From a virus (lineage: Duplodnaviria > Caudoviricetes): a stretch of 52,438 nt of DNA. Under the pieces are notes generated by a model. The model searched no databases, had not been told where the DNA came from, and saw only the letters and a list, made by a program, of their open reading frames with translations. The position numbers and the translations under genes are program-made. This document shows positions 1,972 through 30,746 of this stretch, piece by piece (the stretch's first letter is position 1; each line of letters opens with the position of its first letter). The stretch spans positions 1 to 52,438 of the IMG/VR virus record IMGVR_UViG_3300010054_000044; one strand, written 5' to 3'.

Positions 1972-2871
1972 ATGACAATTAATATTGCCCTAGCCACCTC
2001 GGAAGCAATTGTTTTGGGTTGTGATAGCCTCTCGAGTATGGCGGAACCAGTTTTCAAGGCCCGTGATGTGGAGCTCGTCATAGATGACAATGGGCGCCCA
2101 GTTCAAGATGAGCATGGCAACTTCGTCTTTAAAGGCATGGCATCGACGGCTGTAACCACAGTATTCGGCGGAGTTAGAAAGATGTTCTGCTTAAGTGAGC
2201 ATACAACTCAGGTTGCTGCTGTGACTGCGGGCCTAGCTATCCTTGAAAACATGACCATAGCTGAACACGCCAATAAATTTCGTCGAGAGAGTGGTAACAA
2301 TCTAACCACGGTGGAAGAGGTCGCAGGCGCTTTTCTCCAATACGTCAGAAATAAGTGGGAAATTACAGTTGGGTATATTGATTCACCAAACGAACAGTCA
2401 TTCGATGAGTACCCGAATGTAGAGTTTCTAATTGCTGGCTTTGAACCCAACGGTGAAGGATGTGTCTACAGGGTCGATGTGTTGAAAAATAGCATGGATC
2501 TGCAGTACGATGGCCAGCCCGGGATTGCATGGGCAGGACAAGCAAATTTTGTCCACAGGCTTCTCATCGGAGCAGACGGCTCTCTTGAGCATGATCTGGT
2601 TCATAACCGAGGAGTTGATCCCAATGTTTTTAATGAAGCTTTGCGAGTTAGTAAAACAAATATAGATTTTGCGAATCTTCCAACGCAATACGCTATCGAT
2701 TTTGTAGAGATGTTGGTCAATACTCAGTCAGGCATGCAGCGCTTTGAGCCAGGGATTGCTACAGTTGGCGGAAGAACCCACATCGGAGTCCTGAGACGAG
2801 GTGAAGAATTCACCATGCTCAATGAGCCACAGCTCATCCACAAACACACGGGATTCAATCATGATGATTAA
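1972..2871 (+). CDS. Ntn-hydrolase / proteasome beta-subunit-like protein
   Basis: Likely start M-T-I-N-I-A-L...IVLGCDS (Thr1 after Met removal); RKMF, VAAVTAG, FLIAGF, TVGG motifs. Confidence 0.65.
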   Translation: MTINIALATSEAIVLGCDSLSSMAEPVFKARDVELVIDDNGRPVQDEHGNFVFKGMASTAVTTVFGGVRKMFCLSEHTTQVAAVTAGLAILENMTIAEHANKFRRESGNNLTTVEEVAGAFLQYVRNKWEITVGYIDSPNEQSFDEYPNVEFLIAGFEPNGEGCVYRVDVLKNSMDLQYDGQPGIAWAGQANFVHRLLIGADGSLEHDLVHNRGVDPNVFNEALRVSKTNIDFANLPTQYAIDFVEMLVNTQSGMQRFEPGIATVGGRTHIGVLRRGEEFTMLNEPQLIHKHTGFNHDD

Positions 2872-3055
2872 CCTGTCGAATGCTAGCAGCTCTGTGTTTT
2901 CGAATACTTCCAGACCTCGAGATCCAAGCTTCTACCAAAGTTCTGGTTACGTTTCTACCTCGACGCAATTATCTGGAAAAGAGCGCCAACAGCCCTCAAG
3001 GCAAGAAACAGAAGCCGCTATGCGGGCTATGAAAAAAGCAGTGAGCAAGAAATAG
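2861..3055 (+). CDS. Small Ser-rich/basic hypothetical protein overlapping the Ntn gene
   Basis: ATG overlaps the upstream gene end; followed directly by a terminator. Confidence 0.45.
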   Translation: MMINLSNASSSVFSNTSRPRDPSFYQSSGYVSTSTQLSGKERQQPSRQETEAAMRAMKKAVSKK

Positions 3056-3073
3056 CACATCGATACTATAGAC

Positions 3074-3097
3074 AAGGGCCGCTGATGCGGCCCTTTT
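3074..3097 (+). terminator. Rho-independent terminator
   Basis: AAGGGCCGC-TGAT-GCGGCCCTT followed by TT. Confidence 0.75.
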
Positions 3098-3375
3098 GCT
3101 GTCTAGCGCTAGCAGCAAGAAAAGGGTAGCTGGTTTTCAGCTAACCGCCTGAATATTGACGCGTTGCACCATTGATATGACATGCTGAAGTTTTGAGACA
3201 GCGCTTTCCAGGTGGTGCCGCAAGCTGGCGATCTCCAGGCTCCAGGCCTTAGGTTATGGCATCCCGCCTCCAGCTCTTACAGGCTGCCACAGTGCCTAAG
3301 AGTTACTCGCGTTCTCCGCCATGAAGCGTTAGCGTTAATGCTTGACCAAATTACTATTTAAGTGGAGCGCAGCCT

Positions 3376-3597
3376 TTGGACACTGAAACGTTACTGGGCA
3401 CAGCCTTCATCCTGCCAATGCTTGGGCTGCTGATCATGATCGGTATGCCCAAACATTGGCAAAATGTGCAGGGCTGGCTAATGGTGAGCTACCTGGGGAT
3501 ACCTGGCGCACTGATCGTTATTGCCCTGCTGGTGAACGTCCCTGTTCTCCTGTTTGGTGCGCTGTTCCTGCTAGGGATAGCGGCGGTCAGCCGCTAG
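3376..3597 (+). CDS. Small membrane protein
   Basis: Highly hydrophobic 73 aa; GGAG RBS; convergent with the late operon. Confidence 0.6.
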   Translation: MDTETLLGTAFILPMLGLLIMIGMPKHWQNVQGWLMVSYLGIPGALIVIALLVNVPVLLFGALFLLGIAAVSR

Positions 3598-24037: not shown

Positions 24038-26282
24038 AGGAATCGTACCCTTGAGCCATGTTGTCACGGCGCGCCATGCGGTCGTTCTGCCGCTCGGTAA
24101 GCTCGGCGGCTTTCACGTCGCGCTGGTTTTGTAGCTGGGCGGCGGTCTTGCGCATTTCTAGCTCTAGCTTCTGGCTTTCCAATCCGGCCTTCTGCTCAAG
24201 CTGCGCTAGGGTAATGCCCTCTTTCAGCGCGATCTCTAAGCGCGTCTTTTCCTGCTCGGTTTGCAGTTCGGCGGCTTTATACTGCTGCTCAAACTGTTGT
24301 TGCTGCGCCTTCATCTGGCTCTCTTGCTGCCACTGTTGGGCTTTTAGCTCTAGCTCCTGCTGGCGTAGCTGTAGCTCTTGCATCTTGATCTGAAGCTCTG
24401 GCGGCGGGCCTTCCTCGCCCTGGCCTTGTTGACGCTGCTCTAGCTCCTCGTCGGTGTACGTCACAGTATCGACCGGCACCTGCAGCGTGCGCAGGATCTC
24501 CTTGTACAGCCCTTGCCAGTTGGTTAGCTCGGCAAAGATGGGGTTATTGGCCGCCACTTGAGACAGCATCATCAGCTTCTCTTGCTGCTCCTCACGGGCA
24601 ATCAAAACGCTGGTACCCTTAGCCACCACGTCGAAGTCGCCTTTTATCTCGGCGCGGTCGGTGTACATCATGTGGTAGTCGTAAAACCGGCGAACAGTCG
24701 GCACGCTAATACCGTCATCGAAGTTCTTCACGGCTGAGCGCAGCACGATGTTGGAGTTATTCATCAACATCTGCATGCCGGTCGCCGTTCTGGCACCGGG
24801 ACCGCCGCTCATGCCCTCGCCCTGCAGTAGCACCGGCAGGTTGGTTTCGGTGTCGGCCAGTTCTTGTGCCATGTTGAAGATGGCGGCCATATCGGCTTGG
24901 TTGTTCTGGATTTGCACTGACAGGAACGCTTGATCGATGGGCGCATCGCCGGTGTATTCCCACACCTTGTTACTGCGAATCGTCCAATCGCCGTCTTTAG
25001 GAGTGACAGCGCGCTTGTTGACGACGATCTGCGGGCCAGCAGATAACCCAGCGTTGTCCATCATCATGCGCCAAGCAGCGTTGACCACCTTCTGTGGCTG
25101 CCGCATCAGGTACGGCACGCCAAAGCCGAAAATGGTGGAGCTATCCTCCTCCCAATTAAACACGCTGTAGGGCAAATCGTCGGTTTCCAGCGGGTTCAGC
25201 GCGGCCTTGATAACATGGTTGCCGACCATCAGCACGCAGCCGGTGTATTCGACCAGCGGATCATCGTCTACATCGCAGCCGCACGCCTCTAACTCTTCCT
25301 TGTCCAGCGGCCCCCAATATTCCCAGAGTTCGTAACGGGCATCGCTGACGACGGTATCTACGCCAGTAATGGCACGCATCTCGTCGCGGCGGTCGTGGGA
25401 AATGTGGTGGCCGTCTTTATCTTCCAGCGCTCGGCGCAGCTGGGGCAGCATCACGCCGGGTAGGTCGGCTAGGTCGCGTAGCTGCTTACGGTTGAGCAGC
25501 TTGCGCTCGAACACGAACTCGGCCTCACTCATCTTGGCCGCTGACATATCGGGGAAGAAATCCCAAGGGTCTACACGCTCGACCGCTGGCCGGAACTCCT
25601 CTTGAATCTCCATCACGCTCTGGCCGGTGCTGGGGTCGGTCATCCAAGCGCGGCGGGTGCGGTTCACAATGGCCGGGCCTTTCAGAATACCGGTGCCTAG
25701 AATGCAGGCGTCCTCGATCACGTCGCGGGTATGGGCGTTATAGCGGCTCTCCGCAAAATCGTCCTCGATCTGCTTCTGCATTTGCCGTGCGGCATCATCG
25801 GCAATCGCCTGCGGGTCGGACTGGCCTTGCATCTCTGGCGGCATGCCTTGCGGCATTATTCCCGGCTGCTGCATATCAGCCTGCATCATGCCCTGCTGCT
25901 TGCTCATCGCCGGTACGGGCGTGGGCTTGATGCCGAAGTTGGTGTCGTCGTTGGGCAGCAACATATCGCTAAGGCGTGCAATCGCTGCCCGCGTTTTGTT
26001 GCGCGTAATATTGACGAACACCTGGCTGCCGCCTTTCTGGCGCATGCGGCTCATTTGATCTTCGGTGTACTTGCCGTTGTATTGGCGCAAGTCTTCCAGC
26101 CAGCGGGTTTCGATCTGCTCCTTTGCGGCCACCTGCTCATGGGCCAAGCGATGCAGCTTGGAGCCCAGCATGTTCAGCTCCTCTTCCTGCTGCTGGCGTA
26201 GCGCCTCGCGCTCGTCGGCGTCTAGCTCAACGGGCGCTGTGTCTTGCTCGTCTGCCATCTCGGCAGTCGTGGGGTTTTGCAT
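24030..26282 (-). CDS. Portal protein
   Basis: 750 aa after terL; VDPWDFFPD, FGFGVP, TATGM motifs; Gln-rich C-terminal barrel. Confidence 0.85.
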   Translation of the reverse strand: MQNPTTAEMADEQDTAPVELDADEREALRQQQEEELNMLGSKLHRLAHEQVAAKEQIETRWLEDLRQYNGKYTEDQMSRMRQKGGSQVFVNITRNKTRAAIARLSDMLLPNDDTNFGIKPTPVPAMSKQQGMMQADMQQPGIMPQGMPPEMQGQSDPQAIADDAARQMQKQIEDDFAESRYNAHTRDVIEDACILGTGILKGPAIVNRTRRAWMTDPSTGQSVMEIQEEFRPAVERVDPWDFFPDMSAAKMSEAEFVFERKLLNRKQLRDLADLPGVMLPQLRRALEDKDGHHISHDRRDEMRAITGVDTVVSDARYELWEYWGPLDKEELEACGCDVDDDPLVEYTGCVLMVGNHVIKAALNPLETDDLPYSVFNWEEDSSTIFGFGVPYLMRQPQKVVNAAWRMMMDNAGLSAGPQIVVNKRAVTPKDGDWTIRSNKVWEYTGDAPIDQAFLSVQIQNNQADMAAIFNMAQELADTETNLPVLLQGEGMSGGPGARTATGMQMLMNNSNIVLRSAVKNFDDGISVPTVRRFYDYHMMYTDRAEIKGDFDVVAKGTSVLIAREEQQEKLMMLSQVAANNPIFAELTNWQGLYKEILRTLQVPVDTVTYTDEELEQRQQGQGEEGPPPELQIKMQELQLRQQELELKAQQWQQESQMKAQQQQFEQQYKAAELQTEQEKTRLEIALKEGITLAQLEQKAGLESQKLELEMRKTAAQLQNQRDVKAAELTERQNDRMARRDNMAQGYDSYG

Positions 26283-26283
26283 G

Positions 26284-27000
26284 CTAGTACCCTGTTGTGT
26301 AGTCGCCGGGGGCGCTGCCTGCGCCGGTATTCTGAACGGGGCGCGTGGTGGCGTGGTGTAGCTTCATCACTAGGTAGCGGGTGGCGTCCATCAAGTGGTC
26401 GTTGCTCTTAACGACGCGGCCTTTCTCGTCGCGGCGGTACAGCCGGTACTCGCCTAGCCAGTGCTGCAGCGTGCTAAACACTTTCAGGCGTCCAGTGCTT
26501 AACCGGTCCAGCACTTCCAGCAGCCCAGCCTCCACGCTCTTGTCAACACGGATAAGGTTCAGGCCTTCGTTTTCGTACAGCGTCATCACGCGCTTGCCGT
26601 CGCTCTGGTTCGTACCTGCGTAGTCGATGATTCCCGGCATCCAGCTGCCGCGCATCTTGATCGCTTTGGCGTGAACGGTCGGCTCAGCTTGACCTCGGTA
26701 GTGCTCGCTGTTCAGGTAGAGAATGTCGGTATCGCGGTCGAGCGCGCCCCATATTGCGGCGGTCTTTTTCCAGCCAACGTCGAGGCCATAAGCACGCGCC
26801 CACCAGCCAGGGATTTGGAACGGGTCACAGATAATGTCCTCTTCCGGCACCGGGTAGATGGCACCGCTGCCGAGCGTAGGAATGCCGTTCATGCGCGCCT
26901 CTAGCTGGTGTGGACTGATACCCTTCGCCATATCATCGATATCCTCTTGCTTGAGGTGCGGCGCATCTTTCCAGCCCGCTTGCACGACATACCGGCTCAA
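26284..27000 (-). CDS. terL: Terminase large subunit, C-terminal (lid + RNase H-like nuclease) part as a separate ORF
   Basis: AGW.DAPHL, G.P..GSG.IY, GLDVGW, DHLMDATRY; TTG start in TTGA overlap. Confidence 0.85.
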   Translation of the reverse strand: MSRYVVQAGWKDAPHLKQEDIDDMAKGISPHQLEARMNGIPTLGSGAIYPVPEEDIICDPFQIPGWWARAYGLDVGWKKTAAIWGALDRDTDILYLNSEHYRGQAEPTVHAKAIKMRGSWMPGIIDYAGTNQSDGKRVMTLYENEGLNLIRVDKSVEAGLLEVLDRLSTGRLKVFSTLQHWLGEYRLYRRDEKGRVVKSNDHLMDATRYLVMKLHHATTRPVQNTGAGSAPGDYTTGY

Positions 27001-27218
27001 CGCAGACCTACCATGAACTGTGCGCCTGCAATGGTCAGCACATCGCCAGTGCTAGCGTGCGGGTCTACCATGCGGGCCACTTTTATTGACAGCATGCCTT
27101 CTTTGATACCGCGCTCCCTCACTAGATCGGCAATGCGGGTAGCGGCTGACGTGGTGCGCTTCTGGTACTTGGTGCTGACGCTCGCGGCGAGATATTCGCC
27201 TTGGATGGGGTCGGTCAT
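26997..27218 (-). CDS. Small hypothetical protein inserted between terL halves
   Basis: GGAG RBS; coupled by ATGA and TTGA overlaps on both sides. Confidence 0.55.
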   Translation of the reverse strand: MTDPIQGEYLAASVSTKYQKRTTSAATRIADLVRERGIKEGMLSIKVARMVDPHASTGDVLTIAGAQFMVGLR

Positions 27219-27472
27219 ACTGGCTCCTGCAGGCTGCGAGCCTTGTAATGCTGGGTATTCTTGCGATTGACCACTATTTTCCAGTCGTCACGGAAAGTGT
27301 GGGAGAGCGTGAAATCCATATCGGGGGAATCGCGCATATCAACAATGCTGCCGTCTTTGCAGTGCATGTTGACGGTCTTGCACTCTGCATCCCATGCCCA
27401 ATAGCCGCCCCATTCCGGTAGCGTTACAGCGCAGCCTTGCTTCATACAGCTAAGCGCATCTTTAAAATTCAT
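27215..27472 (-). CDS. DUF2829/Tad2-like small protein inserted between terL halves
   Basis: MNFKDAL..MKQG..V..P.WGGYW...DDW.IV pattern; GGAG RBS; ATGA overlap. Confidence 0.55.
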   Translation of the reverse strand: MNFKDALSCMKQGCAVTLPEWGGYWAWDAECKTVNMHCKDGSIVDMRDSPDMDFTLSHTFRDDWKIVVNRKNTQHYKARSLQEPV

Positions 27473-29139
27473 ACCGGCTCCTGCTCATGCTTGGATTCAA
27501 GAAACGATACCACCAGCTCAGTTAGGCCAGACAGTGGCGTAAACGTCATCATCACAATGCCGCGTGTGGTCATTGTGCGGATCAGCGCCTCGTCGTATAC
27601 GTCTTTAGGTACCTCCTCGTCCAACCACACCACATCCTGCTCAGTGCCCTGGAAGATTCGACGGCCTTGGTCATAGCTGCGCAGCATCAAGCGGCTGGTA
27701 CCGCCGCTGGCGTGGCTGACATTGATCTCTTCGTACAAGTTGGCCACGCCCCTGGCAGGCGTCGGCTTGCCTAGCTTGTCGCGTGGAATCAGGCCGCTGC
27801 CGAACTCGTCGGTATTCCATAGGCCGCCGAGTAGCTTGCTCTGGATAATGTCGCGGGTGGTTTGGCTGGTATCGCCTGCAGCCAGTGCAGTGATTGGCTT
27901 ATCGAACGTGCGGCCTTCCCACCAGTGCGGGTACTCGCCAGTGAGGTGAAAAGCCATTTCTGCACCGCCAGCAATCGTTTTCCCGCAGTTATGGTGATAG
28001 ACGCCAGCGCCCCGATAGTTATTGAATACCGGAATATGAGCGTCTATTATTGGCTGGTAACCAATAGGAACGACAGCAGCGATAACTTCGCCACCCACCA
28101 AGCGAGGCATTGACGATGGGTAGAAAATCCCCAATTGATCAACACTTTCCCCAAATACTCCAACGGATTGAGGCGGGTGAGCCAACATACTTGATTGCTG
28201 ACAGCCTTGGGTTGACACGCCCTTCTCTTCAAGCCTACCTAAAGCGACGCGGGATAAAGAACCGCGCTGGCCGCATGCACCGAAAGCGCCTTGATGATAA
28301 CGAGCTTCGCCACCTAATCGAGGTTGAGCACCTGACGCAAGCGCAAGCCGCCGAAGCGCTTGGTGTCTCCACGTCAGCGGTAGAACGTCGCTGTCGGTCG
28401 CTGCAGCTGAAAACGGCGCGGACAGGGCCTCGACACGGTGACGGTCATCGTAGCTGGCAGGGTGGCCGCCGCGTTGACAAACACGGATATGTCGAGGTAT
28501 TCGCGCCTCTGCATCCTCAAGCGAAAGCGCCAAGCGGCTATGTGTTCGAGCACCGACTGGTGATGGAGGTTGTGCTGGGGCGATACCTGACTGCTGAGGA
28601 AGTGGTCGATCATCGAGATAACCACCCGCGGCACAACTGGCCTGATAACCTTCGACTGTATGCGACCAATGCAGACCATCTGCGCGCGACACTAACTGGT
28701 CGAGAGAAAGCCACCCCTCGTCGGTCAATACCCGGTGCTTACGGGAGCAGTCAAAGAATCGACCGCTGCCCAGCACCACACGAAACGCTGGCTCAATGCC
28801 CACCAGATGTGCGTCAACAGGTTGAACGTCACATTCAGATCCACCAGCCCATGCCCGAAGACTACCAGCGCAGCCGAACAGCGCTTCTGAGGCGCGGACC
28901 GAGCCAGCCGCCGTTTCAATAAACGTCCAGGGCGTGATGCAACGATTGCCTGCCATGAACAGGCGTTCTTTGTGGTACTTGCCTGCCCGGAAGAACTCGA
29001 GGTGCTTGCCGTACAGCTCCCGCCTATACGGGCCTTCATCGGGAAATAGGTCGCGTATCAGGTTGTAGCGTTTGCGCCTCGCCTTTTCTTCCAGCGCTGC
29101 CAGTAGCGCTAAGCGGGCAGCGCGGTTATCACTGCTCAC
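27469..29139 (-). CDS. terL: Terminase large subunit ATPase part (P22 gp2-like), intein-containing precursor
   Basis: ERLFMAGNR|CGKT Walker A, HLTG.YP.WW.G, WLDEE Walker B, TFTP motif III; predicted 238 aa after splicing. Confidence 0.9.
   Translation of the reverse strand: MSSDNRAARLALLAALEEKARRKRYNLIRDLFPDEGPYRRELYGKHLEFFRAGKYHKERLFMAGNRCITPWTFIETAAGSVRASEALFGCAGSLRAWAGGSECDVQPVDAHLVGIEPAFRVVLGSGRFFDCSRKHRVLTDEGWLSLDQLVSRADGLHWSHTVEGYQASCAAGGYLDDRPLPQQSGIAPAQPPSPVGARTHSRLALSLEDAEARIPRHIRVCQRGGHPASYDDRHRVEALSAPFSAAATDSDVLPLTWRHQALRRLALASGAQPRLGGEARYHQGAFGACGQRGSLSRVALGRLEEKGVSTQGCQQSSMLAHPPQSVGVFGESVDQLGIFYPSSMPRLVGGEVIAAVVPIGYQPIIDAHIPVFNNYRGAGVYHHNCGKTIAGGAEMAFHLTGEYPHWWEGRTFDKPITALAAGDTSQTTRDIIQSKLLGGLWNTDEFGSGLIPRDKLGKPTPARGVANLYEEINVSHASGGTSRLMLRSYDQGRRIFQGTEQDVVWLDEEVPKDVYDEALIRTMTTRGIVMMTFTPLSGLTELVVSFLESKHEQEPV
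28022..28050 (+). promoter_or_regulatory. Predicted sigma70 promoter for the antisense HNH gene
   Basis: TTGAAT-17 bp-TATTAT about 65 nt upstream of GAGG-N8-ATG (28116). Confidence 0.6.
28116..28922 (+). CDS. HTH-HNH homing endonuclease encoded antisense inside the intein
   Basis: Two N-terminal HTH-like segments; GYVFEHRLVME..LGR.L..EEVVDHRDN...HN.PDNL HNH motif; GAGG RBS. Confidence 0.85.
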   Translation: MGRKSPIDQHFPQILQRIEAGEPTYLIADSLGLTRPSLQAYLKRRGIKNRAGRMHRKRLDDNELRHLIEVEHLTQAQAAEALGVSTSAVERRCRSLQLKTARTGPRHGDGHRSWQGGRRVDKHGYVEVFAPLHPQAKAPSGYVFEHRLVMEVVLGRYLTAEEVVDHRDNHPRHNWPDNLRLYATNADHLRATLTGREKATPRRSIPGAYGSSQRIDRCPAPHETLAQCPPDVRQQVERHIQIHQPMPEDYQRSRTALLRRGPSQPPFQ

Positions 29140-29683
29140 CGCCCACCTGCTGTTGAAGTTTGGCGATACGCGCCTCTAGCTCGTCGTCAGTCAGGCTGCG
29201 CTCGGCGGTTTCGTCGGCCTTGTCGTCATCGTCCATCGAGTACGCCTGGCGTTCCAGCTTAATAACCTTGCCTAACGCATCCACGCCGCTATTCAAGCTG
29301 CGAGCGAACTCGTTATGGTTGGACTCGTCTACATCAACTTGGGATAGCGTAACGGCTAACTTGGCAGCAATGCCTTTCCAGTCGTTGATCTGCTGACGGT
29401 GGCCAAGCACTACCTGCGTGATTTCGTCTGCCGCTTCCTCAACAATCTCTTCGTCGCTTCGCGCAGTCTCTTGCGCGAAACTATTGCGCGAAGTTGTGCG
29501 CGACAACTTTGTCTTAGCTGTACTTCTTACCTGCTTTGACAGGTTGCGCTGCCAGCCTTTTTTTTGCGCTTTACTGCGTATCGTTGACTCTTTTGTGCCG
29601 TACTGCTCAGCAATAGCGCGTATAGATAGCAAGCCCGCCCGATAGGCGGCTTCGATAGCTTCCCAGTCGGGTGTCTTAGCCAT
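29129..29683 (-). CDS. terS: Terminase small subunit
   Basis: PDWEAIEAAYRAGLLSIRAIA HTH...W.R.L; LERQAY; directly upstream of terL. Confidence 0.8.
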   Translation of the reverse strand: MAKTPDWEAIEAAYRAGLLSIRAIAEQYGTKESTIRSKAQKKGWQRNLSKQVRSTAKTKLSRTTSRNSFAQETARSDEEIVEEAADEITQVVLGHRQQINDWKGIAAKLAVTLSQVDVDESNHNEFARSLNSGVDALGKVIKLERQAYSMDDDDKADETAERSLTDDELEARIAKLQQQVGGEQ

Positions 29684-29720
29684 AAAAAAACGCCACCATT
29701 GCTGGCAGCGTCTCCATGCT

Positions 29721-29918
29721 TTAGTGAATCGTTGCGTTCGCGTAGCTATCAACGCTGTCGGAAAGCCAAGTGCCGTCCGGTAGCTCTAGAATGAATGCAC
29801 GGGCAGTTTCATAACTGCACTCGTCGCCTTCCTCATCGATGAACGTGTCAATCTCGACCGTTTGGCCGGTGTCCAGTAGCGCTAAGCCTTTGCGCAGATT
29901 GATGGCTTCGACATTCAT
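29721..29918 (-). CDS. Small acidic hypothetical protein
   Basis: AGGTG RBS, ORF in the late operon. Confidence 0.55.
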   Translation of the reverse strand: MNVEAINLRKGLALLDTGQTVEIDTFIDEEGDECSYETARAFILELPDGTWLSDSVDSYANATIH

Positions 29919-30061: not shown

Positions 30062-30571
30062 TCAGGCTTCCAGCTCGCGATCTTCGTATTTCCATTTATA
30101 ACCACGATGAGTTTTCTGCTTACCGCTCACTACATAGCTAACCGAGCCGTCATGAAAGCCTGCTTTCTTTAATGCGTACACATCTGTAAAAGCCAGCATT
30201 TCATTGTCGTTGAACCCAATAATGATTCTGCGAACAAAGCCAGTTATGGAATGAAAGCGCTTTTTCTGGATACAGTCGTGAACATTATCTTTCACGCTAC
30301 CAAGCTGCAGATGTTCTGGGTTGATGCAGGCTGGGTTATCGCAAGAGTGCATAACAACAAGGCCCTTAGGCACATCGCCTTTATGCAGCACATAAGAAAC
30401 CTTGTGAGCCCCTAGTCGCCTACTCCCTAGCGAAAACCTGCCGTAACCGTAGGGGTCTTTCCCTCCGCTGTACTCCCAGCAGCCGCTTTCGCTTTTAACG
30501 CATTTTGAAAGCAGTCTTTCTTTTGGGCATGTTCGTGAGCCGTAAGAAAACACTTCCCTTTTGGTAAGCAT
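30062..30571 (-). CDS. Free-standing HNH homing endonuclease with C-terminal NUMOD1-like DNA-binding domain
   Basis: GCWEYSG...YGRF...AHKVSY...VVMHSCDNPACINPEHL...N; HRGYKWKY; GAGG RBS; lower GC. Confidence 0.85.
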   Translation of the reverse strand: MLTKREVFSYGSRTCPKERLLSKCVKSESGCWEYSGGKDPYGYGRFSLGSRRLGAHKVSYVLHKGDVPKGLVVMHSCDNPACINPEHLQLGSVKDNVHDCIQKKRFHSITGFVRRIIIGFNDNEMLAFTDVYALKKAGFHDGSVSYVVSGKQKTHRGYKWKYEDRELEA

Positions 30572-30644
30572 AAACACCACCTCTGTGATTAACCTGGATG
30601 GCAACGCTTCACAGCGTGGCGTGTCGCTTCTCAGCGAGATAGAG

Positions 30645-30746
30645 TCAGCGCCTTTTGCGATGCCAGTACGCTGACAGTAAAAACGTGATGACAATCAAGC
30701 GCAGCCGGAGCCACGCTTCAACGCGCTTACTTGGTGTCAGCTTCAC
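30645..30746 (-). CDS. Putative 33-aa cationic hydrophobic peptide
   Basis: Manually translated MKLTPSKRVEAWLRLRLIVITFLLSAYWHRKRR; GTG start overlapping the holin end. Confidence 0.3.
   Translation of the reverse strand: MKLTPSKRVEAWLRLRLIVITFLLSAYWHRKRR

Follow-up and report, generated by a model that had tools for sequence, protein, structure and literature searches.

Virus record IMGVR_UViG_3300010054_000044 of IMG/VR – a 52,438-base sequence, here called the window, with an estimated completeness of 94% and a GC content of ~58% – carries a gene for the large terminase subunit (terL) that is interrupted within its Walker A (P-loop) codons by a 954-bp element with coding frames on both strands. 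On the minus strand the element is a contiguous 318-aa intein, inserted between R and C of GNR/CGKT (27988..28941; slashes mark junctions throughout), and on the plus strand it holds a separate gene of 268 codons and a stop, lying wholly within the intein (28116..28922) and predicted to encode an endonuclease with two helix-turn-helix (HTH) modules and an HNH core. Comparison with related loci supports a composite element of this kind, in which the endonuclease is a gene of its own on the strand opposite to a contiguous intein. We put at roughly 0.8 the probability that the whole is best explained as a two-strand mobile element whose homing would be driven by the HNH protein; the element appears real, conserved and probably active, its activity being predicted from sequences and structure models. 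Near-identical DNA occurs mainly in sequencing runs labelled marine metagenome.

The open reading frame (ORF) that carries the element on the minus strand (27469..29139) would give a 556-aa precursor containing the N-terminal (ATPase) half of TerL, and consists of a 66-aa N-extein (28942..29139), the intein, and a 172-aa C-extein followed by a stop codon (27472..27987). Across the insert the precursor reads FMAGNR/CITPWTFIE...GVYHHN/CGKT, and intein-less TerL relatives read AGNR/VGKT unbroken. Pfam Terminase_6N matches only residues 385-551 of the precursor (E 3.3e-15), and PHROG 31467 matches it in two separate stretches. Removal of the insert leaves 238 aa, as an earlier note on this DNA had calculated; that note had described TerL as broken at Walker A by a 318-aa intein, a description that the junctions, the invariant residues and the Hint fold bear out.

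From profiles and models we conclude that the insert is a class-1 intein, with a Hint domain predicted to splice and with no endonuclease domain in its own frame. Among 40 aligned copies of the insert, that of the window included and the others from related loci, C1, H69 (in block B), D300, H317 and N318 are invariant (40/40); in the window the C1 codon is TGC at 28939-28941 and block B reads CSRKHRVLT. The +1 extein residue is C, S or T in every junction listed – which the regular expression used to define junctions itself demanded – and is mostly V in intein-less alleles. The first ~97 and last ~48 residues of the alignment are conserved and the middle is not. The N-terminal splicing domain (residues 1-97, blocks A and B; 28651..28941, minus strand), delimited by model confidence and conserved columns, aligns to residues 19-91 of the DnaB mini-intein, and the C-terminal splicing domain (residues 271-318, blocks F and G, ending in HHN; 27988..28131, minus strand) has G294, P297, D300, Y309, G313, H317 and N318 invariant and aligns to mini-intein C-termini.

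A profile made from the family and run against the Protein Data Bank (PDB) finds, at each of its two ends, the solved mini-inteins of DnaB, RecA, DnaX and DnaE (best E 6.7e-8), with inteins filling all of the top 15 places; profile searches of both frames had been proposed in the earlier note. The AlphaFold2 (AF2) model of the intein has a block-mean predicted local distance difference test score (pLDDT) of 87-96 over residues 1-90 and 90-94 over residues 271-318, and low confidence over residues 98-260 (mostly pLDDT 36-84). Foldseek searches with this model return mini-inteins as all of the top matches (best 6frg, E 3.4e-5), and 2in9 aligns with a root-mean-square deviation of 2.1 over 87 columns. 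Residues 98-270 (28132..28650, minus strand) are an open, unconserved filler antisense to the HNH gene; a Pfam scan of the minus frame found no endonuclease domain (neither LAGLIDADG nor HNH). The earlier note had likewise seen no such motif in the middle of the intein, and the Pfam scan, the low pLDDT, the lack of conservation and a minus-frame ratio of nonsynonymous to synonymous substitution (dN/dS) of about 1.8 agree with it.

The plus-strand ORF is, by the evidence of homology and structure prediction, a real gene. The program-made ORF list begins this frame at a TTG (28110; 270 aa), and the ATG at 28116, which gives 268 codons, coincides with the start of an N-terminus, MG[RK], that is conserved in relatives; residue numbers of the HNH protein below follow the 270-aa scheme. 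The protein matches PHROG HNH families at E 4.5e-20, 5.9e-19 and 4.9e-18, the range extending to the 1e-18 level, and a database search returned 217 homologues at E<=0.001; the 120 listed among them are mostly full length, with identity down to 47%. An alignment of 26 sequences is conserved over its whole length, with E147, D170, N176, N180, N187 and H190 invariant and H148 at least 90% conserved; the catalytic role of each is assigned by the HNH motif. The earlier note had described a 268-codon ORF with HTH segments and an HNH motif inside the intein, and the PHROG matches, the homologues and the HTH models uphold this.

The AF2 model of the HNH protein (mean pLDDT 81) shows an ordered series of parts. 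Two predicted three-helix DNA-binding HTH modules lie at residues 8-46 and 63-97 (28131..28400, plus strand); Pfam HTH_23 is found in 24 of the 26 family members, HTH_24 and several further HTH models match the window protein, and the modules bear a weak Foldseek likeness (E 0.1) to the bipartite HTH domains of mariner/Tc3 transposases. The HNH catalytic core follows at residues 120-195 (28467..28694, plus strand), with block-mean pLDDT 88-97 over residues 121-190 and the lowest plus-frame dN/dS of the protein, and then a low-confidence linker (residues 199-216, pLDDT <50; 28704..28757, plus strand) and a C-terminal helical region (residues 223-262, block-mean pLDDT 83-95; 28776..28895, plus strand). 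The AT skew of the window changes sign over ~27850-29050, as expected if the coding strand there is the plus strand.

Some observations weigh against a functional HNH homing enzyme. The Pfam HNH_3 score of the window protein is 20.9 bits, under the 24.8-bit cut-off, with HNH_3 reached at E<=0.001 by 12 of the 26 family members (best 1.9e-7). Foldseek with the whole HNH model gave nothing at E<=0.001, and the homing endonuclease I-HmuI (1u3e) stands only at rank 7 with E 0.38 and probability 0.85 over 78 columns; with matches this weak we do not claim structural membership of the HNH homing enzymes. In one relative (L042:4007-4810, plus strand) TAG occurs in frame at codons 22 and 71 of an otherwise conserved HNH sequence, opposite an open intein frame within a 1203-aa ORF; either this gene is in decay or the phage translates TAG as a sense codon.

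Both frames are preserved among relatives. A search with an HNH profile gave 67 viral and 3 genome loci, and each of the 70 has one antisense frame free of stops along the entire HNH match (open for 441-1203 aa, compared with 15-127 aa for the next-best frame); the HNH frame itself is intact in 69 of 70. With the window included, 63 of 71 loci passed a strict regular expression for the junctions, and these reduce to 42 unique inteins. When the synonymous codons of each HNH gene were shuffled 2000 times, between 2.1 and 10.4 stops were expected in the intein frame and none is present in any of the 42 (P(0) median 0.0005, maximum 0.076); for the window 7.0 antisense stops were expected, 0 were seen, and P(0)=0 in 2000 shuffles. 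The other two antisense frames of the same DNA have 4-25 stops. The minus frame is therefore kept open by selection, which is sensible only if it is translated through.

The overlap reaches deep into the splicing domain. The HNH stop codon lies 19 nt inside the N-end of the intein, so that the C-terminal ~75 codons of the gene overlap intein blocks A-B, and the HNH ORF overlaps intein residues ~7-97, block B included. In 41 of 41 loci the first plus-frame stop comes no more than 28 nt short of the intein N-end, or past it (shuffle median P(0) 0.25 per locus), a test in which the region is set by the observed stop and which shows only that no locus ends early.

The two frames are so phased that codon position 3 on the plus strand pairs with position 2 on the minus strand, and plus position 2 with minus position 3; a change that is silent on one strand is thus always a replacement on the other. 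Among 24 loci of the long class, variability over HNH residues 1-195 is highest at plus position 3 (0.43-0.73), and over residues ~195-230 it is instead highest at plus position 2 (0.44-0.53 versus 0.26-0.31 for plus position 3). Values of dN/dS by the Nei-Gojobori method (NG86), from 28 of 276 pairs at 62-97% nucleotide identity, follow the same division – 0.32 on the plus and 1.85 on the minus strand for the HTH region, 0.15 and 1.77 for the HNH core, 1.16 and 0.48 for HNH residues 195-232 opposite intein block B, and 0.47 and 0.98 for the C-terminal tail (residues 233-267) – and are to be read comparatively only, being biased by construction in overlapping frames and drawn from related sequences, which counts against leaning on them too heavily. 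As read from these sequences, purifying selection is on the plus frame over the HTH region and HNH core and switches to the minus frame over intein block B.

The structure models match this split. The disordered linker of the HNH protein faces the catalytic block B, being antisense to intein residues ~62-80 with His69 among them, and the C-terminal helices of the HNH protein are antisense to intein residues ~16-56, where both sides are confidently folded. The earlier note had read both strands as open over ~800 bp, with the HNH C-terminus over the N-terminal splicing blocks, and had named stops in the plus frame of homologues, or a lack of purifying selection there, as grounds for giving up its reading. 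Homologues instead keep the two-strand arrangement (70 of 70 loci, with 0 intein-frame stops in 42 of 42), the plus frame is intact in 69 of 70 and has dN/dS of 0.15-0.32 over the HTH region and HNH core, and the minus frame has 0.48 over block B.

Each of the two frames might nevertheless be suspected of being no gene at all. Pfam matches 0 families in the window's intein, and Intein_splicing (PF14890) is reached at E<=0.01 by only 8 of the 40 family members (best 5.9e-4), which weighs against an intein; the TerL of the window phage is, moreover, already split at a second place downstream. On such grounds the minus strand could be thought to encode no working intein, with TerL non-functional or in pieces (a fractured gene or a split intein) and the open frame a by-product. 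We regard this as very unlikely, given 0 intein-frame stops in 42 of 42 loci against 2-10 expected, invariant catalytic residues, a Hint fold and minus-frame purifying selection over block B, in a record estimated to be 94% complete; the terminase is essential for phage DNA packaging. A fractured gene or split intein, considered as a candidate in its own right, is at odds with the continuous intein frame in 70 of 70 loci. That the plus ORF is merely a chance or relic open frame has a negligible probability and is contradicted by the data: long antisense ORFs are commoner in GC-rich DNA, and the window is at ~58% GC, yet there are 217 homologues conserved end to end, PHROG HNH matches, a confident fold, a codon-position pattern and dN/dS of the coding type, and 4-25 stops in the other two antisense frames.

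Independent expression of the HNH gene is plausible from candidate signals written antisense in intein blocks F and G. A sigma-70-like promoter candidate (TTGAAT-17-TATTAT; 28022..28050, plus strand) lies 66 nt upstream of the HNH ATG and has 9 of 12 consensus matches; it is antisense to the block G codons P-I-I-D and recurs in relatives, and 2 sigma-70-like sites were found versus 0.7 expected. When the loci are stacked, two conserved plus-strand -10-like hexamers stand out, antisense to the P-I-I-D and to the I-I-A codons, the second of which has at least 5 of 6 TATAAT positions in 23 of 42 loci. The base giving the first T of the hexamer is a synonymous third position in the intein frame, and NTA codons are used there in 29 of 32 hydrophobic codons at the second site and in 21 of 41 at the first, compared with a background of 0.109 in the exteins. 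A Shine-Dalgarno-like GAGG (28104..28107, plus strand) stands 8 nt before the ATG. Words of this type, at least 4 nt long and 3-12 nt upstream, occur in 31 of 42 unique loci, a weak signal given as a raw count with no chance control; in 29 of those 42 loci the distance between the ATG and the intein C-end is 128 nt.

Other points tell against independent expression, or leave it where it was. The promoter case consists of consensus matching and codon bias, and the rare codons could instead serve intein folding; the binomial p-values for the NTA bias ignore phylogeny, and the window's own second site, AGCGAT, is not promoter-like. Of 24 runs listed, 4 from RNA libraries were compared with the window: two (X15, X16) have contigs of 155, 240 and 337 nt identical to parts of 28217-28975, and two others (X17, X18) have a 15-16 kb contig of a relative over 27469-29320 with 231 differences, but such contigs are unstranded, may be DNA, and show neither sense nor antisense transcription. 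A candidate terminator-like hairpin and T-run (28947..28975, plus strand), 25 nt past the HNH stop and inside N-extein codons, was rejected as not above chance, with 1 found versus 1.5 expected in shuffles.

The element is sporadic among close relatives. A search with the C-extein gave 80 TerL-relative loci, of which 78 were analysed (the matches in L102 and L109 start mid-protein, and these two were dropped), and the intein is present in only 4 of the 78. The nearest relative of the window, L072, has 98% aa identity, lacks the intein and reads AGNR/VGKT. All 4 intein loci have the HNH gene, and none of the 74 intein-less TerL loci has it within flanks of up to 3.5 kb per side and less at contig ends. 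In a tree of C-extein DNA from which the 60 nt adjoining the junction were removed (29 rows, 6 with intein), the distribution of the intein calls for a minimum of 5 gains or losses, and occupied rows have well-supported intein-less sisters in the pairs window and L072 (98/98) and L085 and L087 (100/99).

Differences between occupied and empty alleles cluster at the junction. L085 (occupied) and L087 (empty) differ in length by exactly 954 nt, and their other differences are at -1, -3, -7, -10, +3, +10-12, +18, +48 and +61, with none from +62 to +332; all differences up to 21 nt from the junction are synonymous. The exteins of these two are near-identical (tree path ~0.017) and their contig names share a dataset prefix, and occupied and empty alleles seem to co-exist in one community. 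The window and L072 are identical at 20 of 30 nt beside the junction and at 29-30 of 30 further out. In sequence comparison this looks like the pattern expected of endonuclease-triggered gene conversion with short co-conversion tracts; against this, selection for immunity to cleavage could contribute to the clustering, or explain it instead of co-conversion.

Two further explanations grant that both genes are real and deny the HNH protein its part in homing. In one, which we think unlikely, the intein spreads or persists by other means – ordinary recombination between phages in co-infection, or vertical descent with frequent precise loss – and the HNH gene is a passenger that entered the intein and is maintained for its own benefit. 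The extein tree cannot separate gains from losses, and L042 may carry a decaying HNH gene; L073 (1685-1775) is intein-less and has Cys at +1 with a flank of the occupied type (CGKTIAGGAEM, versus VGKT...GGGEM in other empty alleles), which could be the footprint of a precise intein loss, as a passenger HNH would allow, or else a receptive allele. Against a passenger stand the intact HNH frame in 69 of 70 loci and its dN/dS of 0.15-0.32; where exteins are near-identical, differences crowd tightly around the insertion site, which suits repair of a break better than it does general recombination.

HNH proteins encoded next to terminase genes have a role in packaging. The second explanation, which we hold to be a shade less likely again, is that the HNH protein serves such a phage function (cos cleavage or packaging with the terminase, or regulation through its HTH modules) and is merely nested in terL. 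HNH genes beside terminase genes are common in phages, according to the parts consulted of PMC3592412; the HNH protein has two HTH modules, and for 2 of the 26 family members there is a weak match to Terminase_5, which is gpP-like. None of the 74 intein-less TerL loci, however, among them relatives whose TerL is 90-98% identical, has the HNH gene in the flanks fetched, so that those phages package their DNA without it, and its presence tracks the intein exactly (4 of 4 loci) in a pair with homing-like junction signatures.

We therefore return to the two-strand mobile element, and set out how it would work. The minus strand of the 954-bp element, lying in the P-loop codons of a marine phage terL, would be translated within TerL, and the two ends of the insert would form a class-1 Hint domain (Cys1, His69, terminal His-Asn, and Cys at +1) that excises the 318-aa insert and rejoins GNR-CGKT, restoring the ATPase; the ~170 residues between the ends would be filler whose sole constraint is to have no stop codon. 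From the plus strand a protein of 268 aa would be expressed separately, in which two HTH modules precede an HNH_3-type core and a region of C-terminal helices. In co-infection this enzyme would nick or cut intein-less terL alleles at the conserved P-loop sequence, and repair from the occupied allele would copy the intein, the HNH gene and a short flank, including the +1 Cys, Ser or Thr codon needed for splicing. The most likely origin would be the invasion of a mini-intein by a free-standing HNH gene in reverse orientation, followed by co-evolution.

A more ambitious joint reading we offer only tentatively, at a little under even odds: that the element is long co-evolved and maximally compact, belonging to a widespread class in aquatic phages, and not a recent accident. 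In it, ~800 nt out of 954 would be coding in both directions; the N-terminal beta domain of the intein and the C-terminal helices of the HNH protein, each a confidently folded segment, would be encoded by the same DNA on opposite strands; the HNH disordered linker would fall exactly opposite intein block B; and the HNH promoter and ribosome-binding site would be written in synonymous sites of intein blocks F and G. The element would also hop between unrelated TerL families by way of their shared P-loop, and possibly to other P-loop ATPases that have related inteins of the same size.

Two Pfam families of TerL, Terminase_6N and Terminase_3, have the element at their P-loop, with 9 of 10 exteins tested scoring as terminase, and it occurs in two insertion registers within the motif, GNR/[CST]GK and GK/[ST]. 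Pairwise identities of inteins and exteins correlate at r=0.39, a value to be taken qualitatively only, as some identities are artefacts of free end gaps (e.g. extein 1.00 for L039-L063). A different, longer intein-like insert is present at the same P-loop site in L111 (~2200-3500), with 432 aa upstream of the junction ...LSVSN/SGKT, which suggests that the site is a recurrent target. The intein profile also matches, at full length or nearly so, inserts of 297-342 aa in proteins P0198, P0215, P0224 and P0258 (E 1e-18 to 1e-24), whose hosts are other P-loop NTPases: a Strawberry-notch-type helicase, an SMC/AAA_23 protein whose ATPase domain directly follows the insert, and topoisomerase/helicase giants. 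Related loci for P0258 and P0224 were searched for among viral contigs and none was found.

The terL gene of the window is split again downstream of the element, at the linker between ATPase and nuclease (26284..27472, minus strand). The nuclease half is a separate ORF with Terminase_6C (26284..27000, minus strand), and between the halves are two small overlapping ORFs on the minus strand, one of 85 aa (27215..27472) with a match to PHROG 1048 (E 8.4e-12) and a weak Tad2-like match (E 0.02), and one of 73 aa (26997..27218) with no match. Among the 78 TerL relatives, 48 end 166-218 aa past Walker A, with the nuclease half lying -1 to 2069 nt further on, in that frame or a different one, and 29 are contiguous. 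A scan of 26000-29500 with Rfam found nothing at E<=1, so no known intron or RNA family accounts for the interruptions of terL. By analogy with nrdA of phage Aeh1, as presented in the parts consulted of PMC2677866, the downstream split may be that of a gene fractured by insertions. A second HNH endonuclease gene, of 210 aa and free-standing (30062..30694, minus strand; PHROG endonuclease/HNH families, E 2.5e-29), lies in a patch of low GC (0.44-0.51) upstream of the small terminase gene (29129..29752; PHROG 1206, E 8.9e-43).

The comparisons that follow draw on parts of the papers cited. The earlier note had proposed a composite mobile element and had called its architecture undescribed; the first of these claims stands, on an architecture found in 70 of 70 loci, partitioned selection, an HNH gene present only with the intein and homing-like junctions, and the second is refuted by a 2025 preprint by Gosselin, Arsenault and Gogarten (10.1101/2025.01.02.630785), which describes inteins with anti-sense LAGLIDADG and with anti-sense VSR-like endonucleases in actinobacteriophages, terminase large subunits included. 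For an anti-sense LAGLIDADG (the Synechocystis dnaX intein) that preprint refers to Gorbalenya 1998 and Gogarten 2002, and it proposes that inteins are invaded by free-standing endonuclease genes. Its actinophage examples share with the element here a contiguous intein with an endonuclease ORF inside it on the opposite strand, a TerL host, the proposed invasion, and a sporadic distribution implying ongoing transfer. They differ in that its main text lists HNH only as an in-frame type, whereas an antisense HTH-HTH-HNH protein is predicted here; in their hosts, which are actinophages and not uncultured aquatic phages; and in that the promoter-like signal in synonymous sites has no counterpart, the word 'promoter' having 0 occurrences in that main text. 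The antisense endonucleases described there are LAGLIDADG or VSR-like and lie outside the splicing domain, and the HNH gene here overlaps intein residues ~7-97 with block B among them.

A 2026 preprint (10.64898/2026.09.14.751524) reports a cyanobacterial dnaX intein with an out-of-frame LAGLIDADG endonuclease and frame-specific selection. As here, frames overlap inside the intein of a P-loop ATPase, omega is low in the endonuclease frame and raised in the intein frame, secondary invasion of a mini-intein is proposed, and occupied and empty alleles co-exist in populations. That enzyme is a LAGLIDADG protein, described as a +2 ORF, in a bacterial chromosome and not a phage terL, and overlap with the splicing blocks, present here, is not reported in the parts of the preprint consulted. 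Dassa et al. 2009 (PMC2677866) described fractured genes, in which a free-standing endonuclease gene lies between the halves of a split intein; these likewise place a free-standing endonuclease gene in the intein locus of phage-type genes, one terminase case included, and their model predicts intermediates like the present element, but they involve two ORFs, trans splicing and GIY-YIG or Vsr-like enzymes, whereas here the intein frame is continuous and the enzyme is HNH.

An HNH nuclease was tied to an intein in 1997 (as cited in 10.1101/2025.01.02.630785), and inteins are known in mycobacteriophage terminase large subunits (PMC5050341); in both the endonuclease is a domain of the intein polypeptide, and the minus frame here has no nuclease domain. 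The ShiLan domain of a phage methylase (PMC11855218) also has an HNH in an alternative frame of an insertion that is open in the frame of the host gene. Its start and stop codons lie inside the insertion, out of frame with the methylase and presumably on the same strand, and that insertion has no detectable splicing domain, in contrast to the opposite strand and clear Hint domain found here.

Novelty is left to two features, the HNH type of the enzyme and how deeply its gene overlaps the splicing domain; the concept of an antisense endonuclease is already in print. In collaborative homing, which Bonocora and Shub (2009) and Zeng et al. (2009) reportedly described, introns are associated with separate free-standing endonuclease genes. 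There too, a splicing element is said to protect the host gene while a separately encoded endonuclease gives mobility, but those elements are reportedly RNA introns, with the endonuclease gene beside and not antisense within the splicing element. Our literature search, which took in the main text of 10.1101/2025.01.02.630785 and is no proof of absence, turned up neither an intein with an antisense HNH nor so deep an overlap with a splicing domain.

The general picture of inteins is unchanged by these results, which add HNH to the types of endonuclease that sit antisense inside an intein predicted to work. The at least 70 loci form a large natural sample, one that supports the view of intein mobility in which splicing comes first and the endonuclease invades later. 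They also provide a clean natural case of dual coding, in which selection specific to each strand can be read base by base, and in which the regulatory signals of one gene appear to be written in the synonymous sites of another's catalytic motifs. From pairs of empty and occupied alleles (L087 and L085, for example) a candidate recognition site can be delimited in conserved P-loop sequence; these pairs, together with the small size of the HNH protein, make homing, co-conversion and the switching of exteins directly testable.

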